This document shows positions 11,794 to 63,745 of a stretch of 64,000 bases of DNA, one piece after another. The first letter of the stretch is position 1; each line of letters begins with the position of its first letter. The notes below the pieces were generated by a model that made no database searches, was not told where the DNA came from, and saw only the letters and a list, made by a program, of their open reading frames with translations. Location: assembly GCA_020723005.1 (NCBI GenBank), contig DYJS01000001.1:25951-89950 (forward strand). The letters are read 5' to 3'. The position numbers and the translations under genes were made by a program. The DNA comes from Candidatus Methylomirabilis sp. (GTDB lineage Bacteria; Patescibacteriota; DYJS01).

Positions 11794-13360
11794 TTGATTT
11801 TTGCATACTTTTTTTCTCTTTTTTCATCTGTTCAAAATTCAATAACAATAGATGAAGAGTATCATATTGTTCGCGGAATTTTTGCAATACAAACCAAAGA
11901 TTTTAGAATAAACATAGACCATCCACCATTTGCAAATGTTTTTGATGTAATTTTAGTGCAAATTTTTCTCTCACCAAAGTTTGATAAAACAGATTGGTGC
12001 TTTGAAGTTGCAAACAAAGATTGTCTTGCAGATAGATTTTTATTTGAATGGAATAAGGAGAAAATTTGGGAAATTCTTTTCTTAGCAAGAGCATCAAATT
12101 TAATTTTTTTTCTTGGACTTTTAATTTTAATTTTTTTCACAACAAAAAAATTTTTTGGTGAAAAATCTGCTTGGTTCGCCTTTTTAATTTCAATTTTTTG
12201 GCCAAATTTTTTGAGTAGTGGAATTAGCATTACAACAGATATGGCTTCATCATTTTTCTTTTTTACAATTTTTTCTTTTATAATTTTTAATTTTGAAAAT
12301 TTTGAAAAAATCTTTTTTTCAATCATACTTGGAATTTTACTTGGTGCTGGAATGCTCATAAAATATTCATTGGTTGCAATTTTGCCAATAATTATTTTTT
12401 TATATTTTTGGAGATTTGATAAACCAATTTTAAAAGGTTTAATTTCTGCTTTTTTTATGCTTTTTATTATTTCTGCTGGCTATCTTTTTCAATTCAAATC
12501 TTGGAAAGAAACTCCAAAATCAGAAAGTCATACAGAGTGGTATTTGGATTTATTTTTTGGAAAGTTCAGACAAGAAAATTAAGCCTGCAATAAAGTTTTT
12601 TTATGAAGATTTAAAAACTCCTTTTGTGTATTGGTATCGTGGTTTTTTTGATAATGGAATGGGACAATATTCTGGTGTAAGAGAAAAATATAGTTTTTTT
12701 TTAAATGAACAATCTAAAGATGGTTTTAAATTTTATTTTCTTTTCTCTTTTGTTTTCAAAAATCCAATTTCAACAACAATAATTTTTATTTTTTCTTCTA
12801 TTTTTTTACTAAAGAAAAAAAAATTATTGGACGAAGAAAAATTACTTTTTGGAATTTTTATATTTTTAATTTTTATTTTTTCTATAAGCAAAATAAATCT
12901 TGGTTATAGACATGGAATTTTAGCAGATCCTTTCACAATTCTTATCTCTTCGTATATTTTTTCAATTAAAAAATTCGGGAAAATTTTTATTCCACTTTCA
13001 GTTTTTGGTTTTGTCTCTGTGATTTCATCTTTTCCTCACACAATTTCCTATATAAACAATTTGGTTTCTGAAAAAGATAAATTTCATCTTTTTAGAAGTT
13101 CCAACATTGAATGGGGACAAGATGATTTTAGAGCTAAAAAATTTGCAAAATTTTTGGGAAAAAAATCTGAAAAAAAAGTTTACATATATTCTACTTTTTT
13201 AGATTTAGAAAAAATTGCACAAGATTCAGATTCATATATTTTGATTGGAAGCAATTCACTTTCTGGACACAACATAATATCTTCTGAAAAAACAAAAATT
13301 TTACGAGGAAAAATTCCAATTTATGTTTTGTTTGGAAGTTGGTATGTTTTTGAGATTTAA
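11794..13360 (+). pseudogene. GT83/PMT_2-family (ArnT-like) membrane glycosyltransferase split into two ORFs by a frameshift at a T6 run; could be a pseudogene or a homopolymer sequencing error
   Basis: ORF 11794..12582 has the N-terminus ...ITIDEEYHIVRGI...HPPFANVF and many TM segments. ORF 12557..13360 starts with TTG and continues in another frame. The two overlap at tattttttgg (12551-12560). Confidence 0.4.
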
Positions 13361-14797: not shown

Positions 14798-15229
14798 TTA
14801 TTTATTGTCAGATTTAGATTTTTTAAACTCTATTTTTGAAAGTTCTACTTTAAATTCTATTTTATCTTGGAGTGCAATATGAAATAAATTATATGACAGG
14901 TATGGATATAGTGTCATTATCGCAATAAACAAAGGCACTGTTTCTGGATTTTTCGTCAATTCCGTTATTTTATGAATTGATAATGCTGGTAGCATAGCAA
15001 TTAGTATACCAAGCATAGATGCAAAAGCTCTATTAAACAAACCAATTTCAATAATAATTTTTCCTGTTATCCCCGTGATTTTTTCTGGTTGAGTTGCTTC
15101 TATCTGACCATCATTTGGAATGCTTTCTATTGTTCCCATTGGAGCACCACACATCTTACAAATTTCATGAGGTTCTGTATATTTTGTTTTACAATATTTA
15201 CAAATAAATAAACTTGTTTCATTTGTCAT
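14798..15229 (-). CDS. Zinc-ribbon membrane protein, unknown function
   Basis: N-terminal CKYC-x9-H-x2-CKMC zinc ribbon, then two hydrophobic helices. It lies downstream of the conserved TTGACT-(TC)7-TAGAAT promoter element. Confidence 0.5.
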   Translation of the reverse strand: MTNETSLFICKYCKTKYTEPHEICKMCGAPMGTIESIPNDGQIEATQPEKITGITGKIIIEIGLFNRAFASMLGILIAMLPALSIHKITELTKNPETVPLFIAIMTLYPYLSYNLFHIALQDKIEFKVELSKIEFKKSKSDNK

Positions 15230-15282
15230 TTCTTGAAATTTAATTAAAAAATCCTTCTCAAAAATTTACTTCTTGAAGTTTG

Positions 15283-15308
15283 ATTCTAGAGAGAGAGAGA
15301 GAAGTCAA
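15283..15308 (-). promoter_or_regulatory. Promoter-like element TTGACT-(TC)7-TAGAAT on the minus strand, copy C of a recurring motif
   Basis: The reverse complement reads CTCTTGACTTCTCTCTCTCTCTCTAGAATCAAACTTCAAGAAG. It sits about 50 nt upstream of the start of the 14798..15229 gene. Confidence 0.45.
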
Positions 15309-15311
15309 GAG

Positions 15312-16631
15312 ATGTTTAAAAATTTAAAAAATTTACGATACAAACTAACAAAAAATATCAAATTAGAGAATTTAAAAAACTTTTTTATTCGAATACCAAG
15401 AGCTTTTTTTTATTCTTTGAAAGAGAATTTTCCCGGAAAAAATTCTTCTCTTGGAATTATTGGAATTACAGGAACAAAGGGGAAAACTTCTGTTGCTTTT
15501 ATTTTATATCATATTTTAAATTCAAAATTTAGAACTTCGTTAATTTCTACAATTGAAGCAAAAATTGGTTCAGAAAATGTTGATACAGGGTTTCATGTAA
15601 CAAGTCCAGATTCAAATCAGATTTATAAACTTTTAAAAAAATCTCTTGAAGCAAAATCAGAAAAGGTAGTTTTTGAAACAACTTCACACGGAATGTTTCA
15701 AAAAAGAGTAGAATTTGTTGATTTTGAAGTTGCAGTTTTTACGAACATTGCAAGAGATCATCTTGATTATCATCCAACTTTTGAACATTATTTATGGTCA
15801 AAATCTTTGCTTTTTCGTGGAAAAAAGCTCAAACTTTCTGTTTTAAATTTTGACGATAAACTTAGTTTTGAATATCTCAAAAAATGTGCAAAAGGAAAAA
15901 TTGTTTCGTATTCAATTAAAAATGAAAAAGCTGATATTTTTGGAAAGATTTTGGAAATTAGCGAAAAAGGAACAAGATTTTTAGTAAAAAGAGAGAATTT
16001 TAAACAAGAATTTTTTATGCCAGTTGTTGGAGAAGTTTATGTTTCAAATGCTTTGTCTTCCATTGCCGTTGCTCTTTTTTATGGAATGAGTTTAAAGGAG
16101 ATCTCTGAAAGTTTAAGAAATTTTACTGGAGTTTCTGGAAGAATGGAAAAAATTGATGAGGGGCAAAATTTTTCAGTTTTTGTGGATTTTGCTCATACAC
16201 CAGATTCTTTGCAAAAACTTTTAGAGGGAATTCGAAAAATTAGAAAATCTGAAAAGCAAAAAATTTTTGCAGTTTTTGGAAATGCTGGAGAAAGAGATCC
16301 TGAACGGAGAAAAATGGGTGGAGTTTCTGCAAAACTTTCTGATATAACAATTCTTACAGCAGAAGATCCAAGAAGCGAAGGGGTTGAAAAAATTATGAGC
16401 GAAGCTGAAAAATATGCAGTTGAGAATGGTGCAATTTTAAACAAAAATCTCTTTAAAATTAGCGATAGAAGAATTGCAATAAAAACTGCTTTTGAAATGG
16501 CAAAAGATGGAGACTTCGTTCTTCTTTCTGGAAAAGGTCACGAACAGAGTATGAATTTTGGAAATGGGGAAGAGTGGTGGGATGATCGAGTTGTTGCAAG
16601 AGAGGAGTTGAGAAAATTGCTAGGAAAATAA
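15312..16631 (+). CDS. murE: Mur ligase, most likely UDP-MurNAc-L-Ala-D-Glu:2,6-diaminopimelate ligase (MurE-like)
   Basis: P-loop GITGTKGKTS, DHLDYH, GKGHE and a DNPR-like LTAEDPRSEG motif. The track ORF begins with TTG at 15273 and reads through the (GA)7 tract as RERER. The ATG at 15312 is the more plausible start. Confidence 0.7.
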   Translation: MFKNLKNLRYKLTKNIKLENLKNFFIRIPRAFFYSLKENFPGKNSSLGIIGITGTKGKTSVAFILYHILNSKFRTSLISTIEAKIGSENVDTGFHVTSPDSNQIYKLLKKSLEAKSEKVVFETTSHGMFQKRVEFVDFEVAVFTNIARDHLDYHPTFEHYLWSKSLLFRGKKLKLSVLNFDDKLSFEYLKKCAKGKIVSYSIKNEKADIFGKILEISEKGTRFLVKRENFKQEFFMPVVGEVYVSNALSSIAVALFYGMSLKEISESLRNFTGVSGRMEKIDEGQNFSVFVDFAHTPDSLQKLLEGIRKIRKSEKQKIFAVFGNAGERDPERRKMGGVSAKLSDITILTAEDPRSEGVEKIMSEAEKYAVENGAILNKNLFKISDRRIAIKTAFEMAKDGDFVLLSGKGHEQSMNFGNGEEWWDDRVVAREELRKLLGK

Positions 16632-25165: not shown

Positions 25166-25197
25166 TAAAAAGCAGTCGCGAGACTGCTTTTTTTATT
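25166..25197 (+). terminator. Rho-independent terminator
   Basis: aaaaAGCAGTCgcgaGACTGCTttttttt is a 7-bp GC-rich stem with a 4-nt loop and a T7 tail. Confidence 0.6.
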
Positions 25198-25236
25198 TTG
25201 TAATAAATTTTTTAATATTTTTTTTTATAAAAACTC

Positions 25237-25256
25237 TTGACTTCTCTCTCTAAAAT
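25237..25256 (+). promoter_or_regulatory. Promoter-like element TTGACT-(TC)4-TAAAAT, copy B of the recurring motif with a shortened repeat
   Basis: AAAACTCTTGACTTCTCTCTCTAAAATCAAATTTCAAAAAG. Only 8 nt separate the two hexamers, against 14 nt in copies A and C. Confidence 0.45.
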
Positions 25257-25401
25257 CAAATTTCAAAAAGATAATTTTTGAGAAGATTTTAGAATTAAAG
25301 AAAAATATGCTTGATCTTAATTCTTTTTTTAATGATTTAAAAGAACAAATAGTTGGAACTTTTAAAGAAAAAATGTCAGTTTTTTAGAAAAATTTCTTTG
25401 T

Positions 25402-25767
25402 TTGTCATTGGCACCTTTTATTATTCTATACTGGAGAAATGAAAACAGAAAATATAAAGATGTTTCAGAAATAGGAATAAAAATTCAAAATTTAGAAAAA
25501 TTAACTAAAAATATATTTGATTATTTAATTTTTGCAAAAGATCCAAATGATACTTATCAGTTTAGAAAAAACAAAGACACAGCATTCACTGAAAAATTTA
25601 AAGAATTTAAAGAAACAACTGACGAAATTATTAAATTACTGCAAAATCCTCAGAAAAATTTTTTAGATCAAAATTTTTCTTTATTAGAACATATAAAAAC
25701 TACTCTCGCAAATCTTAGATTAAGATTAATGGGAATATTCCAGAAAATGAACTGCTCGTTGCATTAA
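25402..25767 (+). CDS. Hypothetical protein; possibly the 3' part of a gene frameshifted at a T6 run (25380-25385)
   Basis: TTG-start ORF of 121 aa. An upstream 26-codon ATG ORF (25307..25387) would fuse to it if one T were inserted. Confidence 0.3.
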   Translation: MSLAPFIILYWRNENRKYKDVSEIGIKIQNLEKLTKNIFDYLIFAKDPNDTYQFRKNKDTAFTEKFKEFKETTDEIIKLLQNPQKNFLDQNFSLLEHIKTTLANLRLRLMGIFQKMNCSLH

Positions 25768-47099: not shown

Positions 47100-48290
47100 T
47101 TATGAAATCACTCCACCACCTAAACATTCATTATTATCATAAATTGCTACAAATTGTCCCTTTGCAACTCCAGAAATCTTTTTATCAGATCTTATTAAAA
47201 ATCTCTCTTTTTTGTTTTCCAAATTTAAATTTTCATTTTCGTTAGAAATTTTTAAAATTTTTCCACTTTCAAAAGTTGGTGTATGACGAATTTTAAAATG
47301 AATTTCCTTTTCAAAATTTTTTGTTTTTTGATTTTCAATTTTTATATTTTGATTGATCCAATTAAAATCTTCTATAAAAATTTCGGAAACATATCTTTCT
47401 TCTGGATCGTATCCGTTTGCAACAAAAATTTCATTTTCAATTTCATTTTTGGAAACTACAAACCATGGACCACCAGCAAGATTTAGTCCACTTCTTTGCC
47501 CGATTGTGTGAAACCAAAACCCATTGTGTTCTCCTAAAATTTTTCCACTTTCTTTTTCAATAATTTTTCCAGATTTTTTTCCAACATATCGCTCTAAAAA
47601 TTTTTTGTAGTTTATTTTTCCCAAAAAACAGATTCCTTGACTATCTGGACGATTTGCAGAGAGGAAATTTTGTGATTTTGCAATTTCTCTGACTTCTTTT
47701 TTTTCTAAATCTCCAAGTGGAAAAAAAGATTTTGAAATTTGATCAACAGAAAGTTGGCTCAAAAAATAGGTTTGGTCTTTGATTTTATCTTTTGCTGTCA
47801 TTAAATGATAGACATTTCTTTCTTTTGGGTTTTGAACTCTTTCTTCTATAAAAAATGTATCTTTTATAAATTTATTATGCATCATATCTGAATTTTGAAT
47901 TCTTCCTTTTAGCACTTTTGCATAATGTCCTGTAGAAATTTTATCAAAATTTTTTCCAAATTTTTCATAAAATGCACCAAATTTTACTAATTTATTACAC
48001 ATCATATCTGGGTTTGGAGTTCTTCCTTTTTTTACCTCAGAAATTGTATAATTAACCACCAAATTCCAATATTCTTTTTGTAGAGAAACGATTTCAAGAT
48101 TTAATCCAAGTTTTTTGCAAACATCTTCAGCAAATTCAATATCTTCTTTCCAAGGACACTCCCCAAAACCGAGGTTACCTTCCATCCAAATTTTTATGTA
48201 AAATGGTTGAACAGAAAAACCTTGTTCTTTTTCCAGAAAAAGAGCAACTGAACTATCCACCCCACCACTCAAAAGATGTGAAATTTGCAA
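47100..48290 (-). CDS. mnmA: tRNA-specific 2-thiouridylase MnmA
   Basis: PP-loop SGGVDSSVA, RTPNPDMMCNKLVKFGAF, GHYAKV and KDQTYFLSQL. It contains an internal imperfect tandem duplication (NPDMMCNK.../NSDMMHNK...). The start codon is TTG. Confidence 0.85.
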   Translation of the reverse strand: MQISHLLSGGVDSSVALFLEKEQGFSVQPFYIKIWMEGNLGFGECPWKEDIEFAEDVCKKLGLNLEIVSLQKEYWNLVVNYTISEVKKGRTPNPDMMCNKLVKFGAFYEKFGKNFDKISTGHYAKVLKGRIQNSDMMHNKFIKDTFFIEERVQNPKERNVYHLMTAKDKIKDQTYFLSQLSVDQISKSFFPLGDLEKKEVREIAKSQNFLSANRPDSQGICFLGKINYKKFLERYVGKKSGKIIEKESGKILGEHNGFWFHTIGQRSGLNLAGGPWFVVSKNEIENEIFVANGYDPEERYVSEIFIEDFNWINQNIKIENQKTKNFEKEIHFKIRHTPTFESGKILKISNENENLNLENKKERFLIRSDKKISGVAKGQFVAIYDNNECLGGGVIS

Positions 48291-48294
48291 AACC

Positions 48295-48320
48295 TTGACT
48301 TCTCTCTCTCTCTCTAAAAT
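48295..48320 (+). promoter_or_regulatory. Promoter-like element TTGACT-(TC)7-TAAAAT, copy A of the recurring motif, upstream of the ECF sigma operon
   Basis: AAAACCTTGACTTCTCTCTCTCTCTCTAAAATAAAATCTCAAGACAA. It lies 57 nt upstream of the ATG at 48377. Confidence 0.5.
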
Positions 48321-48376
48321 AAAATCTCAAGACAATCAAATTTTGTTTTGAAAAGTTTTATCATTAAAGAATTTTT

Positions 48377-48826
48377 ATGGATAATAATATTGATTTGGGA
48401 GGAGGAGAAAAAAGTGAATTTGCAATAAGAGGCAAAAGACCGCTTACACCTGCAGAGGAAAGATCTGTCAAAATGGGCTTAGATTTAGAAATCTTACAAA
48501 AATATAATTTTGCAGAAGGAACATCAGAACTAAAGTTAGCTGAGAAAGTTGTTAAGATTGTTAATAGAGAATTTGGGCACAGAGGATCGGAGTTAAATCA
48601 AAACAAGATAGAGATATTATTTCCAGATCTTCATTTGAGTATTAGATATTCTCAAGATTCACAATATTACTTTGAATTATACATATCTTCTGAATTAAAG
48701 AAATTAGGGATTGAAGTTCTTTCTTGTAATTTTGAAATAACTGAAGATGATAGGGGTAGAGACAGAATGTTTATTAAAAAAATTGTTGTAAGAAAATATG
48801 TATCTCCTATTCTGCTTCCATCATAA
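48377..48826 (+). CDS. Hypothetical protein, first gene of the ECF sigma operon
   Basis: 149 aa with no recognisable family. Its composition is less K/F-rich than its neighbours. Confidence 0.4.
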   Translation: MDNNIDLGGGEKSEFAIRGKRPLTPAEERSVKMGLDLEILQKYNFAEGTSELKLAEKVVKIVNREFGHRGSELNQNKIEILFPDLHLSIRYSQDSQYYFELYISSELKKLGIEVLSCNFEITEDDRGRDRMFIKKIVVRKYVSPILLPS

Positions 48827-48974
48827 TTTTAATGAAATAATTTTTTTAGATTTATTTTAATAATATTTATTATTAAATTGGTTGTTTTAAAATTTATTTT
48901 GAAACTTTTTTAAAATTTTGTTTGTATATATTTTTGAGAACTTTATTTTTTAGAAATCTTTTGTTAATTGTTTA

Positions 48975-49538
48975 ATGAATGCAAATTTTTTGGAAAAAGA
49001 AGTTCTGAAAAAAGCAAAAGATGGAGATGATTCAGCTTTTGAAATTATTATTCGAGAGTTTGAAAGAAAAATTGTTCGTTTTGCATATGGAATGGTTGGA
49101 AATTCTTTTGATGCAGAAGATTTGGCACAAGAGATTTTTGTAAAAGTGTATTTTGGAATCAAAAATTTTGATTTTTCTAAACCTTTTGAACCATGGCTAT
49201 ATGCAATTGCCAGAAATCATATCAGAAGTTTTTTATCATCAAAAAGGGGTGTTTTTGTTTCACTAGAAAAAATTTTGGGAACATTAGAAGAGAAAGCAAT
49301 AGAATCTGAAGATGATATTGAAAAAGTTGATCCTGAATTGAGGATTGCGATGGAGAAATTAAAAACAATTGATAGAGAGATAATTTCTCTCAAATATATC
49401 TCTGAATTGAAGCTTGAAGAGATTGCAGAAAGATTGAAATTGCCTCTTTCAACGGTTAAAACAAAACTTCGGAGAGGATTGAAAAAGCTGGAAAATGATC
49501 TAAATTTGGAAAAATTAAATTTAAGTTTTTTAGAATGA
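48975..49538 (+). CDS. ECF-type RNA polymerase sigma factor (sigma-70 regions 2 and 4)
   Basis: Region 2 (FEIIIREFERKIVRFAYGMVGNSFDAEDLAQEIFVKVY...PWLYAIARNHIRS) and region 4 HTH (EIAERLKLPLSTVKTKLRRG). Confidence 0.8.
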   Translation: MNANFLEKEVLKKAKDGDDSAFEIIIREFERKIVRFAYGMVGNSFDAEDLAQEIFVKVYFGIKNFDFSKPFEPWLYAIARNHIRSFLSSKRGVFVSLEKILGTLEEKAIESEDDIEKVDPELRIAMEKLKTIDREIISLKYISELKLEEIAERLKLPLSTVKTKLRRGLKKLENDLNLEKLNLSFLE

Positions 49539-49885
49539 ACATTGAGGAAAGATTAAAAAATTTGTCTCAACAAAAAAAAGATTCTCAAAACTTTATTTTG
49601 AATGTTTTTGAAAAAATTTACGAGGAGAAAAGAAGAAGAGAATTTTTGAAACCTTTTAAAATTTTAGCTACTTTTTCAGTAATTTTTTCACTTCTTCTTG
49701 GTTTTTTTTATAGTGTAATAAATTTTTCTGGTTCAACAAGTTTTGAGACACTCGTATATTCTTTGAATAATCAAATTTTTAATTCAGGAATTGTAGGTTC
49801 GTTGTTTGATGGAATTTTATTTTTTTCATTTTTATTAGTGCCAATTTTTTCATTTCCATTTTTAAAATTAAAAAATGCAAGATAG
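49535..49885 (+). CDS. Putative membrane anti-sigma factor
   Basis: The start overlaps the sigma stop (ATGA). It has a cytoplasmic N-terminus, then a single TM. This is the typical genetic position of an anti-sigma factor. Confidence 0.45.
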   Translation: MNIEERLKNLSQQKKDSQNFILNVFEKIYEEKRRREFLKPFKILATFSVIFSLLLGFFYSVINFSGSTSFETLVYSLNNQIFNSGIVGSLFDGILFFSFLLVPIFSFPFLKLKNAR

Positions 49886-50315
49886 TAAAAAATTATATTG
49901 GATTTTTGGAATTCTTCTCAGCATAAATTTTTTATTGGCTGGATTTTTCATTGGATCTTTTTATGAAAAATCAGTTGAAAATGAAAAAATTCAAAAATTA
50001 GAAGAGGAGAATAATTCGCTTGTAAAATTTGCAGGGAAAGAATTTTTGGATTCAGAAAGTTGGAGAAATTTACCAAATCCGCGAGAAAACTTTGCAAATA
50101 ATTTTTTGTCTGAAAGGGGTTTGGTTGGAAAAATTTTGCAAAAAAAAGATCTTTTTGGAGTTTTAAAAACAAAAGCAGGTTTAGTTAGAATCTCTTTTAA
50201 AGATAAGGATTTATTAGAAAATTTTGAGATTGGAGATAAAGTTATAGTTTTTGGGGAATTAAAAAATGAAAATTTCGGAAAAGTGATCATAGTTAACAAA
50301 ATTGAAAAGGTTTAA
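49875..50315 (+). CDS. Membrane-anchored hypothetical protein, third gene of the sigma/anti-sigma module
   Basis: An 11-nt overlap joins it to the previous gene. N-terminal TM, then a soluble domain ending ...DKVIVFGELKNENFGKVIIVNKIEKV. Confidence 0.4.
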   Translation: MQDSKKLYWIFGILLSINFLLAGFFIGSFYEKSVENEKIQKLEEENNSLVKFAGKEFLDSESWRNLPNPRENFANNFLSERGLVGKILQKKDLFGVLKTKAGLVRISFKDKDLLENFEIGDKVIVFGELKNENFGKVIIVNKIEKV

Positions 50316-62155: not shown

Positions 62156-62227
62156 TGCGAGATAGAGCAGAGGCAGCTCGCCGGGCTCATAACCCGGAGG
62201 TCGTTAGTTCGAATCTAACTCTCGCAA
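62156..62227 (+). tRNA. tRNA-Met (anticodon CAT), possibly initiator-type
   Basis: Cloverleaf: acceptor stem TGCGAGA/TCTCGCA, D-arm GAGC/GCTC, anticodon stem CCGGG/CCCGG with loop CTCATAA, T-loop TTCGAAT. The 3' CCA is not encoded. Three consecutive G:C pairs close the anticodon stem. Confidence 0.85.
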
Positions 62228-62364
62228 CAAGAGAAAATAATTTTTTAAATTTTTTAAGAAATTCGTTTTTAAAAAAAATTTTTAAAAATTTCGAATTTAC
62301 TTTTGCAAATTTAATTAAAAATTTTAGTTTTTAAAAAAATTAGAAATTATTTTTTAAAACAAAA

Positions 62365-63058
62365 ATGCTTGTAGTAAATTCTATTTCAAAACATATTGAC
62401 ACAGATTTGATTTTTCAAAATGTAATTTTTTAATTTCAAAAGGAGATAAAATTGCTCTGATTGGAAAAAATGGGGTAGGGAAAACGACACTTTTAAAAAT
62501 TTTATCAGAAATTGAATTGCCAGATTTATCAGAAAAAAACTTTTAGAAAAAATAAAAAACCTTTAAATTTCTCTACAGTAACACTTTCTCAAGAGGGATT
62601 TAATTCAAAACAAAAAGTTTTGATTTTATTTATGGAGAAAACAAAGAGAGAATTTTTTGGGAACAAAAAGTTTTTGAGCTTAAAAGAATTCTTAAAAAAA
62701 GTTATTTTGAAAAATTTATGAATGATTTGATTGATGCTGAAAGAAATTTAGCAAAAAATTCTGATGAAATTTTTTCTTCTAAAATTGAAAAGATTTTTGA
62801 ACTAACTGGAATTTCGGAAAAAATTTTATTTTCTGAAATTGATTCACTTTCTGGTGGAGAAAAACAAAGTTAAAGTTGATGAAAATTTTACTTACTTTTT
62901 CAAATTTTTTGATTCTTGATGAGCCAACAAATCACCTTGATCTTTTTTCTATTCAAGAGTTGGAAAATTTTTGTAAAAAATTTTCAGGGTTAATTCTTGC
63001 AGTGAGTCATGATGATGATGATGATTTTGAGAAGATTGGGAAGTCTGTGAAATTATAA
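62365..63058 (+). pseudogene. ABC transporter ATP-binding protein pseudogene with multiple stops and frameshifts
   Basis: Fragments across three frames: MLVVNSISKHIDTDLIFQNVIF*, Walker A ALIGKNGVGKTTLLKIL, signature LSGGEKQ, then Walker B/H-loop ILILDEPTNHLD...VSHD in the 62876..63058 ORF. Confidence 0.55.
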
Positions 63059-63115: not shown

Positions 63116-63745
63116 ATGAAAAATTTTGGAAATCTAAAGTATATTTTTATTGGTGGAGTATTTTCAATAATTTTAATTGTTTCTGCACTTTTTGTTTTTG
63201 GTGAAAAATCTGAAGAGAAAAAAGAAAATAATGCTAAATCTTCTGAAGAGAATAAAATTATTAAAGACAAAAAAGAAGAAGATGAAGTTGAAAAATTAGA
63301 AGAAGTTTCAGAAACTTTTTTTGAAAGAGAAAAAATTAAAGAAGAAGAGAAGGGGAATGAGAATACCAATGAAAATTTATCTAAAAATGGTACAAAAAAA
63401 GATAGTAAATCTGAAAATCAATTAGTTGTTTCGTTAAACGATGCAATGAGTATAGTTGGAAAAAAATTTTTCTTTTACAATGGAGAAATTGAAAGTGGAG
63501 AAGCTGCAAAAATTTCTGGAGCAAAAGATGAAAAGTATTTGCTTTTTATGAATATGGAATCTGGAAGATTTTATTTGATCTCTTACGAAAATTTTAAAAA
63601 ATGGAGCGAAGAGAAAAAAATTCCTTCCAAACTGGAAGTTGCAACAGTAATATATGAAGCAAATATTAAAACAGTTGGAGATTTGATGAGGTCTTCAGAC
63701 GGAATTGAATATTATGAAATTTTAAATTTAGAATCTATGAAATAA
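63116..63745 (+). CDS. Membrane-anchored hypothetical protein with a K/E-rich linker
   Basis: N-terminal TM, a charged low-complexity region, then a globular C-terminal domain. Confidence 0.4.
   Translation: MKNFGNLKYIFIGGVFSIILIVSALFVFGEKSEEKKENNAKSSEENKIIKDKKEEDEVEKLEEVSETFFEREKIKEEEKGNENTNENLSKNGTKKDSKSENQLVVSLNDAMSIVGKKFFFYNGEIESGEAAKISGAKDEKYLLFMNMESGRFYLISYENFKKWSEEKKIPSKLEVATVIYEANIKTVGDLMRSSDGIEYYEILNLESMK

Follow-up and report, generated by a model that had tools for sequence, protein, structure and literature searches.

A gene for an extracytoplasmic function (ECF) sigma factor lies downstream of a promoter-like element with seven TC dinucleotides in a 64,000-nucleotide (nt) stretch of DNA from Candidatus Methylomirabilis sp. 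(contig DYJS01000001.1, positions 25,951 to 89,950; the entire stretch is referred to here as the window, and positions are numbered from its first letter). Related elements precede two other genes in the window, which raises the question of whether the elements are the regulon of the sigma factor, as the initial annotation had proposed, or promoters of another kind, in which the length of the TC tract itself matters. The analysis described here did not support the regulon; the sigma operon is most likely a neighbor of the elements and not their regulator. The best explanation found for the elements is a candidate promoter switch that would operate through the distance between the -35 and -10 hexamers.

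The window has a GC content of 25 to 30% and comes from a gene-dense genome with almost no Shine-Dalgarno sequences. Close relatives of it are absent from the protein database, the nearest homolog of the ECF sigma factor is 35% identical, and the organism may be CPR/Patescibacteria-like (CPR, candidate phyla radiation). The window matches a contig of 118 to 127 kb that is present in the Joint Genome Institute (JGI) metagenome 3300000227 (contig TB_AS07_7DRAFT_10000015), in the NCBI assembly GCA_973415815.1, and in the Logan contigs of SRR1559028. Sample AS07-7, a sulfidic cave biofilm from Acquasanta Terme, was sequenced on an Illumina HiSeq 2000, and the JGI assembly is a multi-k SOAPdenovo merge (PMC4288042). 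Judging by the sample name and the run accession, the NCBI, JGI, and Logan assemblies all appear to derive from this single Illumina sample. The contig was extended beyond the window by 9.4 kb on the left and 9.7 kb on the right, and the census of modules, motifs, and simple sequence repeats (SSRs) covered the resulting 83 kb. The two module copies found to the right of the window (D and E, below) are given in coordinates under the locus label L017.

A repeated TC module precedes unrelated small open reading frames

The module family has at least five copies, three in the window (A, B, and C) and two that lie 40 nt (D) and 3.3 kb (E) past its right end. An nhmmer profile built from A, B, and C and then run over the 83 kb recovered the five copies at E values of 1e-22 to 6e-7, with no other match below E = 0.01 in the same sequence. 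On sequence comparison, the similarity among the three window copies is far beyond chance. The repeated element of the initial annotation is thus real, but the size of ~40 nt given for it was too small, since the similarity reaches the start codon; the full module extends from ~8 nt 5' of TTGAC to the start codon and measures 81 to 93 nt. Pairwise identity over ungapped columns is 73 to 91% (80 to 91% in nine of ten pairs, the A-E pair being the outlier at 73%). Each module opens with CTCTTGAC(T/A), followed by (TC)n and then TA(A/G)AAT, and four blocks are kept in all five copies: CTCTTGAC, the TC tract, TA(A/G)AAT(C/A)A(A/G)A, and AAAG(A/T)TTTTA. The string TCTCTCTC occurs 12 times in the window, compared with 1.3 occurrences expected. 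The leader that had been put forward as conserved, CAAAYTTCAAGAAG, is exact in copy B only; copy C carries one mismatch, and copy A carries several.

Copy A (48287 to 48376, plus strand; nhmmer E = 2e-19) consists of CC-TTGACT (48295 to 48300), (TC)7 (48301 to 48314), and TAAAAT (48315 to 48320), followed by a 56-nt leader to an ATG at 48377, and the module occupies the entire 86-nt divergent intergenic region. Copy B (15230 to 15316, minus strand; E = 1e-22) has TTGACT at 15308 to 15303, (TC)7 at 15302 to 15289, and TAGAAT at 15288 to 15283, with a leader that runs to the ATG at 15229 in a divergent intergenic region of 82 nt. In copy C (25229 to 25306, plus strand; E = 2e-17), TTGACT (25237 to 25242), (TC)4 (25243 to 25250), and TAAAAT (25251 to 25256) are followed by a leader ending at the ATG at 25307. 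The places and unit numbers (7, 7, and 4) originally reported for these three copies agree with the sequence. Copy D (L017:10936, plus strand) carries (TC)5, and copy E (L017:14254, minus strand) reads TTGACA-AAT(CT)5C-TAGAAT, with a 14-nt spacer.

Copies A, B, and E sit in short divergent intergenic regions, and copies C and D come after co-directional genes; a terminator-like hairpin (~25170 to 25195) after a Big_13 gene precedes copy C. At its far end, copy A abuts the TTG start codon (48290 to 48288) of mnmA, encoding tRNA 2-thiouridylase (47100 to 48290, minus strand), copy B abuts the ATG (15312) of a gene for a 439-amino-acid (aa) Mur ligase (15312 to 16631, plus strand), and copy E lies at the 5' end of the MurJ gene.

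On the leader side, each module precedes a different orphan open reading frame (ORF) of ~110 to 157 aa. All five copies thus stand before small orphan ORFs; the pattern that the initial annotation had named as evidence against its proposal, a motif in front of many housekeeping genes, was not found. The ORF after copy A (149 aa; 48377 to 48826, plus strand) is intact and has no family match. The ORF after copy B (143 aa; 14798 to 15229, minus strand) is also intact; its product has a zinc-ribbon-like CxxC...CxxC motif at the N terminus as well as hydrophobic segments. Searches of 5.8 billion proteins yielded no homologs of these 149-aa and 143-aa products, and among 1.8 billion representatives the two queries gave a single marginal match, of the 149-aa product to a repeat protein (E = 4e-5). 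An AlphaFold prediction of the 149-aa protein without an alignment was unusable (pLDDT of 41.6). The five downstream products show no pairwise similarity to one another (best BLASTP E of ~1), and paralogy among them was therefore rejected. Since the downstream ORFs are unrelated, what is conserved is the noncoding module.

The other three downstream ORFs are interrupted. The ~153-aa ORF after copy C (25307 to 25767, plus strand) is split into 26 aa and 121 aa by a frameshift at T6 (25380 to 25385); one additional T restores the frame, and the frameshift is identical in the window, NCBI, and JGI sequences. The ~157-aa ORF after copy D (L017:11014-11485, plus strand) is broken at a G5 run and at a T5 run, and the ~110-aa ORF after copy E (L017:14196-13751, minus strand) has its TTG start in frame only if an A7 run gains one base. 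Every one of these breaks would be mended by +1 nt in a homopolymer, and the ordinary long genes of the contig are intact. The breaks are probably real, because the data are Illumina reads and the frameshifts after C and D recur in more than one assembly. A 454-type homopolymer error was ruled out as their cause, as the sample was sequenced on an Illumina HiSeq instrument. The broken ORFs could reflect relaxed selection or a second, translational switch.

The leader was also considered as an RNA element. RNAalifold gave 0 consensus pairs for the five leaders, and Rfam searches returned nothing at gathering thresholds and no match at E ≤ 1 in the loci around A and B (L014 and L020); a structured leader RNA or riboswitch was ruled out on these grounds. 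A scan for CTTGACTTCTC-N0-24-TCTARAATMAAA in genome, metagenome, and viral contig collections returned chance matches only, without the TC tract or the leader.

The TC tract forms the promoter spacer and differs between assemblies

The -35 boxes (TTGACT or TTGACA) and the -10 boxes (TAAAAT or TAGAAT) match the sigma70 consensus in all five copies. Between these hexamers, the spacer consists of the TC tract alone in A to D and of AAT plus the tract in E, so that an SSR separates -35 and -10 hexamers, recognizable by consensus match only, in five of five copies. In the NCBI and window sequences, the spacers are 14 nt (A), 14 nt (B), 8 nt (C), 10 nt (D), and 14 nt (E). In the JGI assembly, copy B is (TC)8 and copy E has one unit more, giving a spacer of 16 nt at both, compared with 14 nt in the NCBI and window sequences. 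Tract lengths at A, C, and D do not change between assemblies: copy A is (TC)7 in the window, NCBI, and JGI sequences alike, and copy C is (TC)4 in all three as well as in Logan. The tract is therefore polymorphic in length at B and E, as judged by comparing assemblies and not reads. Since the assemblies appear to come from a single sample, the differences point to coexisting alleles.

These differences are concentrated beyond expectation. Eight internal insertions or deletions (indels), all of the SSR type, distinguish the NCBI and JGI sequences over ~72 kb, and two of the eight are the tracts of B and E; ~0.004 indels would be expected by chance in ~40 nt of long tract. Runs of (TC)n/(GA)n of at least five units are present at 4 loci, where composition predicts ~0.1, and (AT)n/(TA)n runs of the same length are absent, against ~7 expected. 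The polymorphism, together with the excess of TC runs and the absence of AT runs, identifies the TC tract, at the level of sequence, as a slippage hot spot that is retained where the genome otherwise avoids dinucleotide repeats. The suggestion that repeat length could tune or switch expression was borne out to this extent: the tract is the spacer, and it varies both among copies and between assemblies.

Additional assembly differences were noted near the modules. A Logan contig (k = 31) starts at 48326, 12 nt past the tract of copy A, and another ends at 25257, 7 nt past the tract of copy C. No stretch of at least 31 nt is common to any two module copies. A simple bubble (k = 31) caused by tract length does not fit the positions of the contig breaks, for which a drop in coverage or local variants may be responsible. 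Just 5' of copy C, in T/A-rich sequence at 25215 to 25222, the window differs from both NCBI and JGI by a 4-nt TTTA indel.

A proposed spacer-length promoter switch is the best explanation

The modules may constitute a slipped-strand, spacer-length promoter switch of the hifA/B and Vmm kind, a reading that we hold with about even confidence. In this model, dispersed homologous promoter-plus-leader modules would each drive another small lineage-specific ORF. TC units would be gained or lost by slipped-strand mispairing at replication, and the distance between -35 and -10 would shift in 2-nt steps. Approximately eight or nine units (16 to 18 nt) would provide the spacing that is well used by the housekeeping RNA polymerase; most of the alleles seen, with 8, 10, or 14 nt, would then be expected to be off or weakly active, and B and E to be on when their spacer measures 16 nt. 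Copies C and D, whose spacers are 8 and 10 nt and whose cargo genes are broken, would have decayed or become locked in the off state. Small orphan proteins would thereby be switched, or adjusted in volume, at several loci in a stochastic, heritable, and reversible manner. We infer that the hexamers act as the promoter, that the spacing active in this organism is 16 to 18 nt, and that switching of the tract alters expression. The rule that 16 to 18 nt corresponds to the ON state is taken from general knowledge of sigma70 promoters; the step from 14 to 16 nt at B and E enters that range arithmetically.

Several observations weigh against this model. Canonical spacers of 16 to 18 nt are absent from the alleles of the window, and copies C and D would need three to four further units and may be dead; tracts of four or five units slip rarely. 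The length polymorphism comes from assemblies, in which assembler error at an SSR is possible, and copy A is invariant. Three of the five downstream ORFs are frameshifted (C and D) or lack an in-frame start (E), which could mean decay. The module was also found in no related genome, the scanned collections containing neither the source genome nor close relatives. Finally, ordinary promoters in this genome apparently have a -10 element only, with no TTGACA-type -35, and the dependence on spacing is thus borrowed from elsewhere; a preferred -35/-10 spacing was sought in the genome's other promoters, and no peak was found. In the window and its flanks, the -10-like hexamer TA[ATG]A[AT]T peaks 6 to 7 nt 5' of the ATG, where 9 of 63 genes carry it and ~1 would be expected (for example, before the starts at 63116, 17932 on the minus strand, and 71071 in window-equivalent numbering). 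This position of the hexamer, along with the lack of Shine-Dalgarno sequences before most genes, suggests that leaderless mRNAs are widespread in this organism.

A broader version of the switch model is more speculative, and we consider it rather unlikely. It would have a multilocus phasome in a CPR-like cave bacterium, in which a self-propagating (TC)n promoter cassette switches fast-evolving orphan proteins, and read-through at copy A would pulse the sigma/anti-sigma operon, so that an envelope stress regulator would be tied to a random switch.

Alternative explanations for the modules

The alternative that survives best, although it is still unlikely, is that the module is propagated or mobile noncoding DNA, either a putative mobile promoter or the 5' end of a decaying cassette, with a TC tract that drifts neutrally and has no regulatory role. 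The modules fit putative mobile promoters as these have been defined (PMC3488235), the cargo ORFs are frameshifted or startless in three of five cases, and copies C and D have short tracts and nonfunctional spacings, all of which would be expected of such an element. Neutral drift does not readily account for hexamers that remain at consensus in five of five copies, including the most diverged, E, or for long (TC)n runs that persist in a genome otherwise without dinucleotide repeats; furthermore, both polymorphic loci shift between 14 and 16 nt. Propagation explains the spread of the modules and is compatible with the switch model.

Distinctly less probable is the proposal that the tract-length differences are assembly artifacts, each locus having one fixed length and the element being a repeated strong promoter plus leader. 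Both +1 alleles are found in JGI only, the product of the multi-k SOAPdenovo merge, which also differs at T homopolymers, and the invariance of copy A would fit a fixed length. The data are nevertheless from Illumina, which normally reads dinucleotide runs of 14 to 16 nt accurately, and JGI shows no change at A, C, or D. Moreover, the paralogous copies differ regardless of assembly (4, 5, 6, and 7 units), indicating that slippage has occurred in the lineage.

The opposite strand could instead be the functional one, with (GA)n serving as a purine-rich 5' untranslated region, enhancing ribosome binding, or contributing to a bidirectional promoter; we judge this improbable. The idea draws on the geometry of the divergent copies: (GA)7 lies 11 to 24 nt 5' of the start codons of two essential genes, the mnmA TTG and the Mur ligase ATG, the tract stopping exactly 10 nt before the start, and in copy E (GA)n lies 32 nt 5' of an ATG near the MurJ 5' end in a different frame from the annotated ORF. 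Intergenic regions of only 86 and 82 nt also mean that both promoters must overlap the module, and the hifA/hifB precedent, as summarized in the source cited below, is likewise a divergent pair. This geometry is not shared by C and D, which have no divergent gene, and a ribosome-binding role is at odds with the scarcity of Shine-Dalgarno sequences in this genome. A change in n also leaves the distance from tract to start unchanged, and no convincing -10/-35 pair was seen on that strand by inspection.

The ECF sigma operon has its own candidate promoter

The second gene downstream of copy A does encode an ECF-type sigma factor, as initially annotated (187 aa; 48975 to 49538, plus strand; Sigma70_r2 and r4_2 domains; TIGR02937, 97.6 bits versus a cutoff of 42.9). 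The protein is closest to SigW/SigX-type models and falls below every equivalog cutoff; thus, it is SigW-like but not SigW. It is followed by a gene for a 116-aa protein with two hydrophobic segments (49535 to 49885, plus strand) and a gene for a 146-aa protein (49875 to 50315, plus strand), which has one hydrophobic segment, at its N terminus, and matches the OB-fold weakly and below threshold. The 116-aa protein is a putative anti-sigma factor on the basis of its position and its hydrophobic segments; no significant match to any family, anti-sigma families included, was obtained. The description of four overlapping genes does not hold. Overlaps join only the sigma and 116-aa genes (4 nt) and the 116-aa and 146-aa genes (11 nt), and an AT-rich gap of 148 nt separates the end of the 149-aa gene (48826) from the sigma start (48975).

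This gap contains a candidate ECF-type (SigW-like) promoter (48900 to 48928, plus strand), TGAAAC-TTTTTT-N11-TGTATA, with TGAAAC at 48900 to 48905, an adjoining T6 tract, a 17-nt spacer, and TGTATA at 48923 to 48928, ending 46 nt 5' of the sigma ATG. It is the sole match to TGAAAC-N15-18-YGTA in the window and in the 83-kb contig. A distant homolog at locus L032 (P0015, 33% identical) has TGAAAC TTTTTT CTAACATTCTT TGTATT directly upstream, and another at locus L030 (P0009) has TGAGTC TTTTTC GCGGCCTCGCT CGTAAA, both with 17-nt spacing. The motif agrees with the SigW/V/X promoter consensus of Bacillus subtilis, tGAAACnTTTt ... CGTA (PMC5758882). It shares with the B. subtilis SigW, SigX, and SigV promoters the same -35 box, a T tract adjoining the -35, and a -10 that contains GTA, and differs from them in having TGTA rather than CGTA at the -10. 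Because the motif is unique in the 83 kb, has the same spacing at two homologous loci, and matches a published consensus, the operon of the sigma, 116-aa, and 146-aa genes is most likely transcribed from an autoregulated promoter of its own. Transcription from copy A may also read through into the operon, since no terminator was predicted between them.

The initial proposal that the sigma factor recognizes the modules, with copy A as its autoregulated promoter and the other copies as its regulon, is highly improbable: copy A does lie 680 nt 5' of the sigma gene on the same strand without an intervening terminator, all copies do precede small ORFs, some of them membrane associated as is typical of ECF cargo, and intergenic DNA shows no other enrichment of TTGAC hexamers, so that the box is not a generic promoter feature, but the boxes match the sigma70 consensus and lack AAC/CGT-type ECF motifs, spacers of 8 to 16 nt are unfit for one ECF holoenzyme, the TGAAAC...YGTA motif directly 5' of the sigma gene is found in none of the modules, and the homologous sigma loci have no conserved small gene upstream.

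Other features of the locus

At the distant ECF locus L030:4089-4586, the third gene encodes a zinc-ribbon (DZR) protein and follows a zf-HC2 anti-sigma factor; the likeness to the 143-aa product downstream of copy B may be a coincidence. Repeat-associated differences were also seen elsewhere in the window. An (ATG)5 run, gagtcATGATGATGATGATGATTTTGAGAAGATTGGG (63009 to 63023), is longer by one unit in the JGI assembly. The region around it, from a tRNA-Met gene (62156 to 62228) to a 209-aa gene (63116), contains small broken ORFs, and the sequence after the run, ATTTTGAGAAGATT, resembles the module leader (AATTTTTGAGAAGATTTT). A PMT_2-like glycosyltransferase gene (11794 to 13360) is seemingly split into ORFs of 262 and 267 aa, and in this region the assemblies disagree at an ATTT tandem unit (12548 to 12551) and at T runs at 12596 and 12694. 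Positions 10 to 1200 hold three tandem paralogous genes of family PF18895 (T4SS_pilin), which account for 110-nt direct repeats at 64 to 173, 420 to 529, and 721 to 830.

Comparison with known systems

To our knowledge, SSR-driven phase variation is known almost only in host-adapted pathogens (Haemophilus, Neisseria, Campylobacter, Helicobacter, and Mycoplasma), and a full-text literature search turned up no account of SSR-based phase variation at promoters of CPR bacteria. If the switch model is correct, contingency loci would extend to an environmental bacterium with an ultrasmall genome; surface variation directed toward hosts or phages in that lifestyle has been suspected, but we know of no documented case. 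The phasome version, if true, would be the first contingency-locus system described in such an organism. The modules would also provide a concrete example of a promoter that spreads within a genome along with its own switch. The regulatory map of the locus is also corrected, in that the ECF sigma operon has a candidate SigW-like promoter of its own.

Three precedents are relevant. The divergent hifA/hifB fimbrial promoter of Haemophilus influenzae contains a (TA)9-11 tract (van Ham et al. 1993, as summarized in PMC2651432). According to that summary, it resembles the modules in having a dinucleotide SSR between -35 and -10, 2-nt spacer steps, and a short divergent intergenic region, as in copies A, B, and E. 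It differs in its unit (TA and not TC) and in being one fimbrial locus of a pathogen, whereas the modules are five dispersed copies before unrelated orphan ORFs, have housekeeping genes as divergent partners (mnmA, Mur ligase, and MurJ), and belong to a small, AT-rich environmental genome.

In Mycoplasma mycoides, poly-TA tracts precede Vmm and several lipoprotein genes (Persson et al. 2002, as summarized in PMC2628566 and PMC3053259). As described in those summaries, that system also has a small AT-rich genome with several loci at which a dinucleotide tract lies in the promoter of a small gene (Vmm, ~16 kDa), and tract length varies by locus and by strain. ON/OFF switching there is transcriptional; for the modules, switching is proposed only. 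The M. mycoides tracts are TA with 10 to 16 units, compared with TC with 4 to 8 units here, and the summaries describe recognizable lipoproteins, whereas the products downstream of the modules have no established lipoprotein or signal features and no family membership.

Putative mobile promoters are upstream sequences of 50 to 100 nt with ~80% or greater identity that are repeated before nonhomologous genes (Matus-Garcia, Nijveen, and van Passel 2012, PMC3488235). The modules have these properties, with nine of ten pairs at 80 to 91% identity and unrelated downstream ORFs. The definition of that class includes no embedded hypermutable SSR, and some pairs involving copy E fall below 80%. By analogy with these systems, the proposed switch would belong to the known class of SSR-spacer promoters, and its unit (TC), its organism, and its multicopy arrangement would be what is unusual about it.

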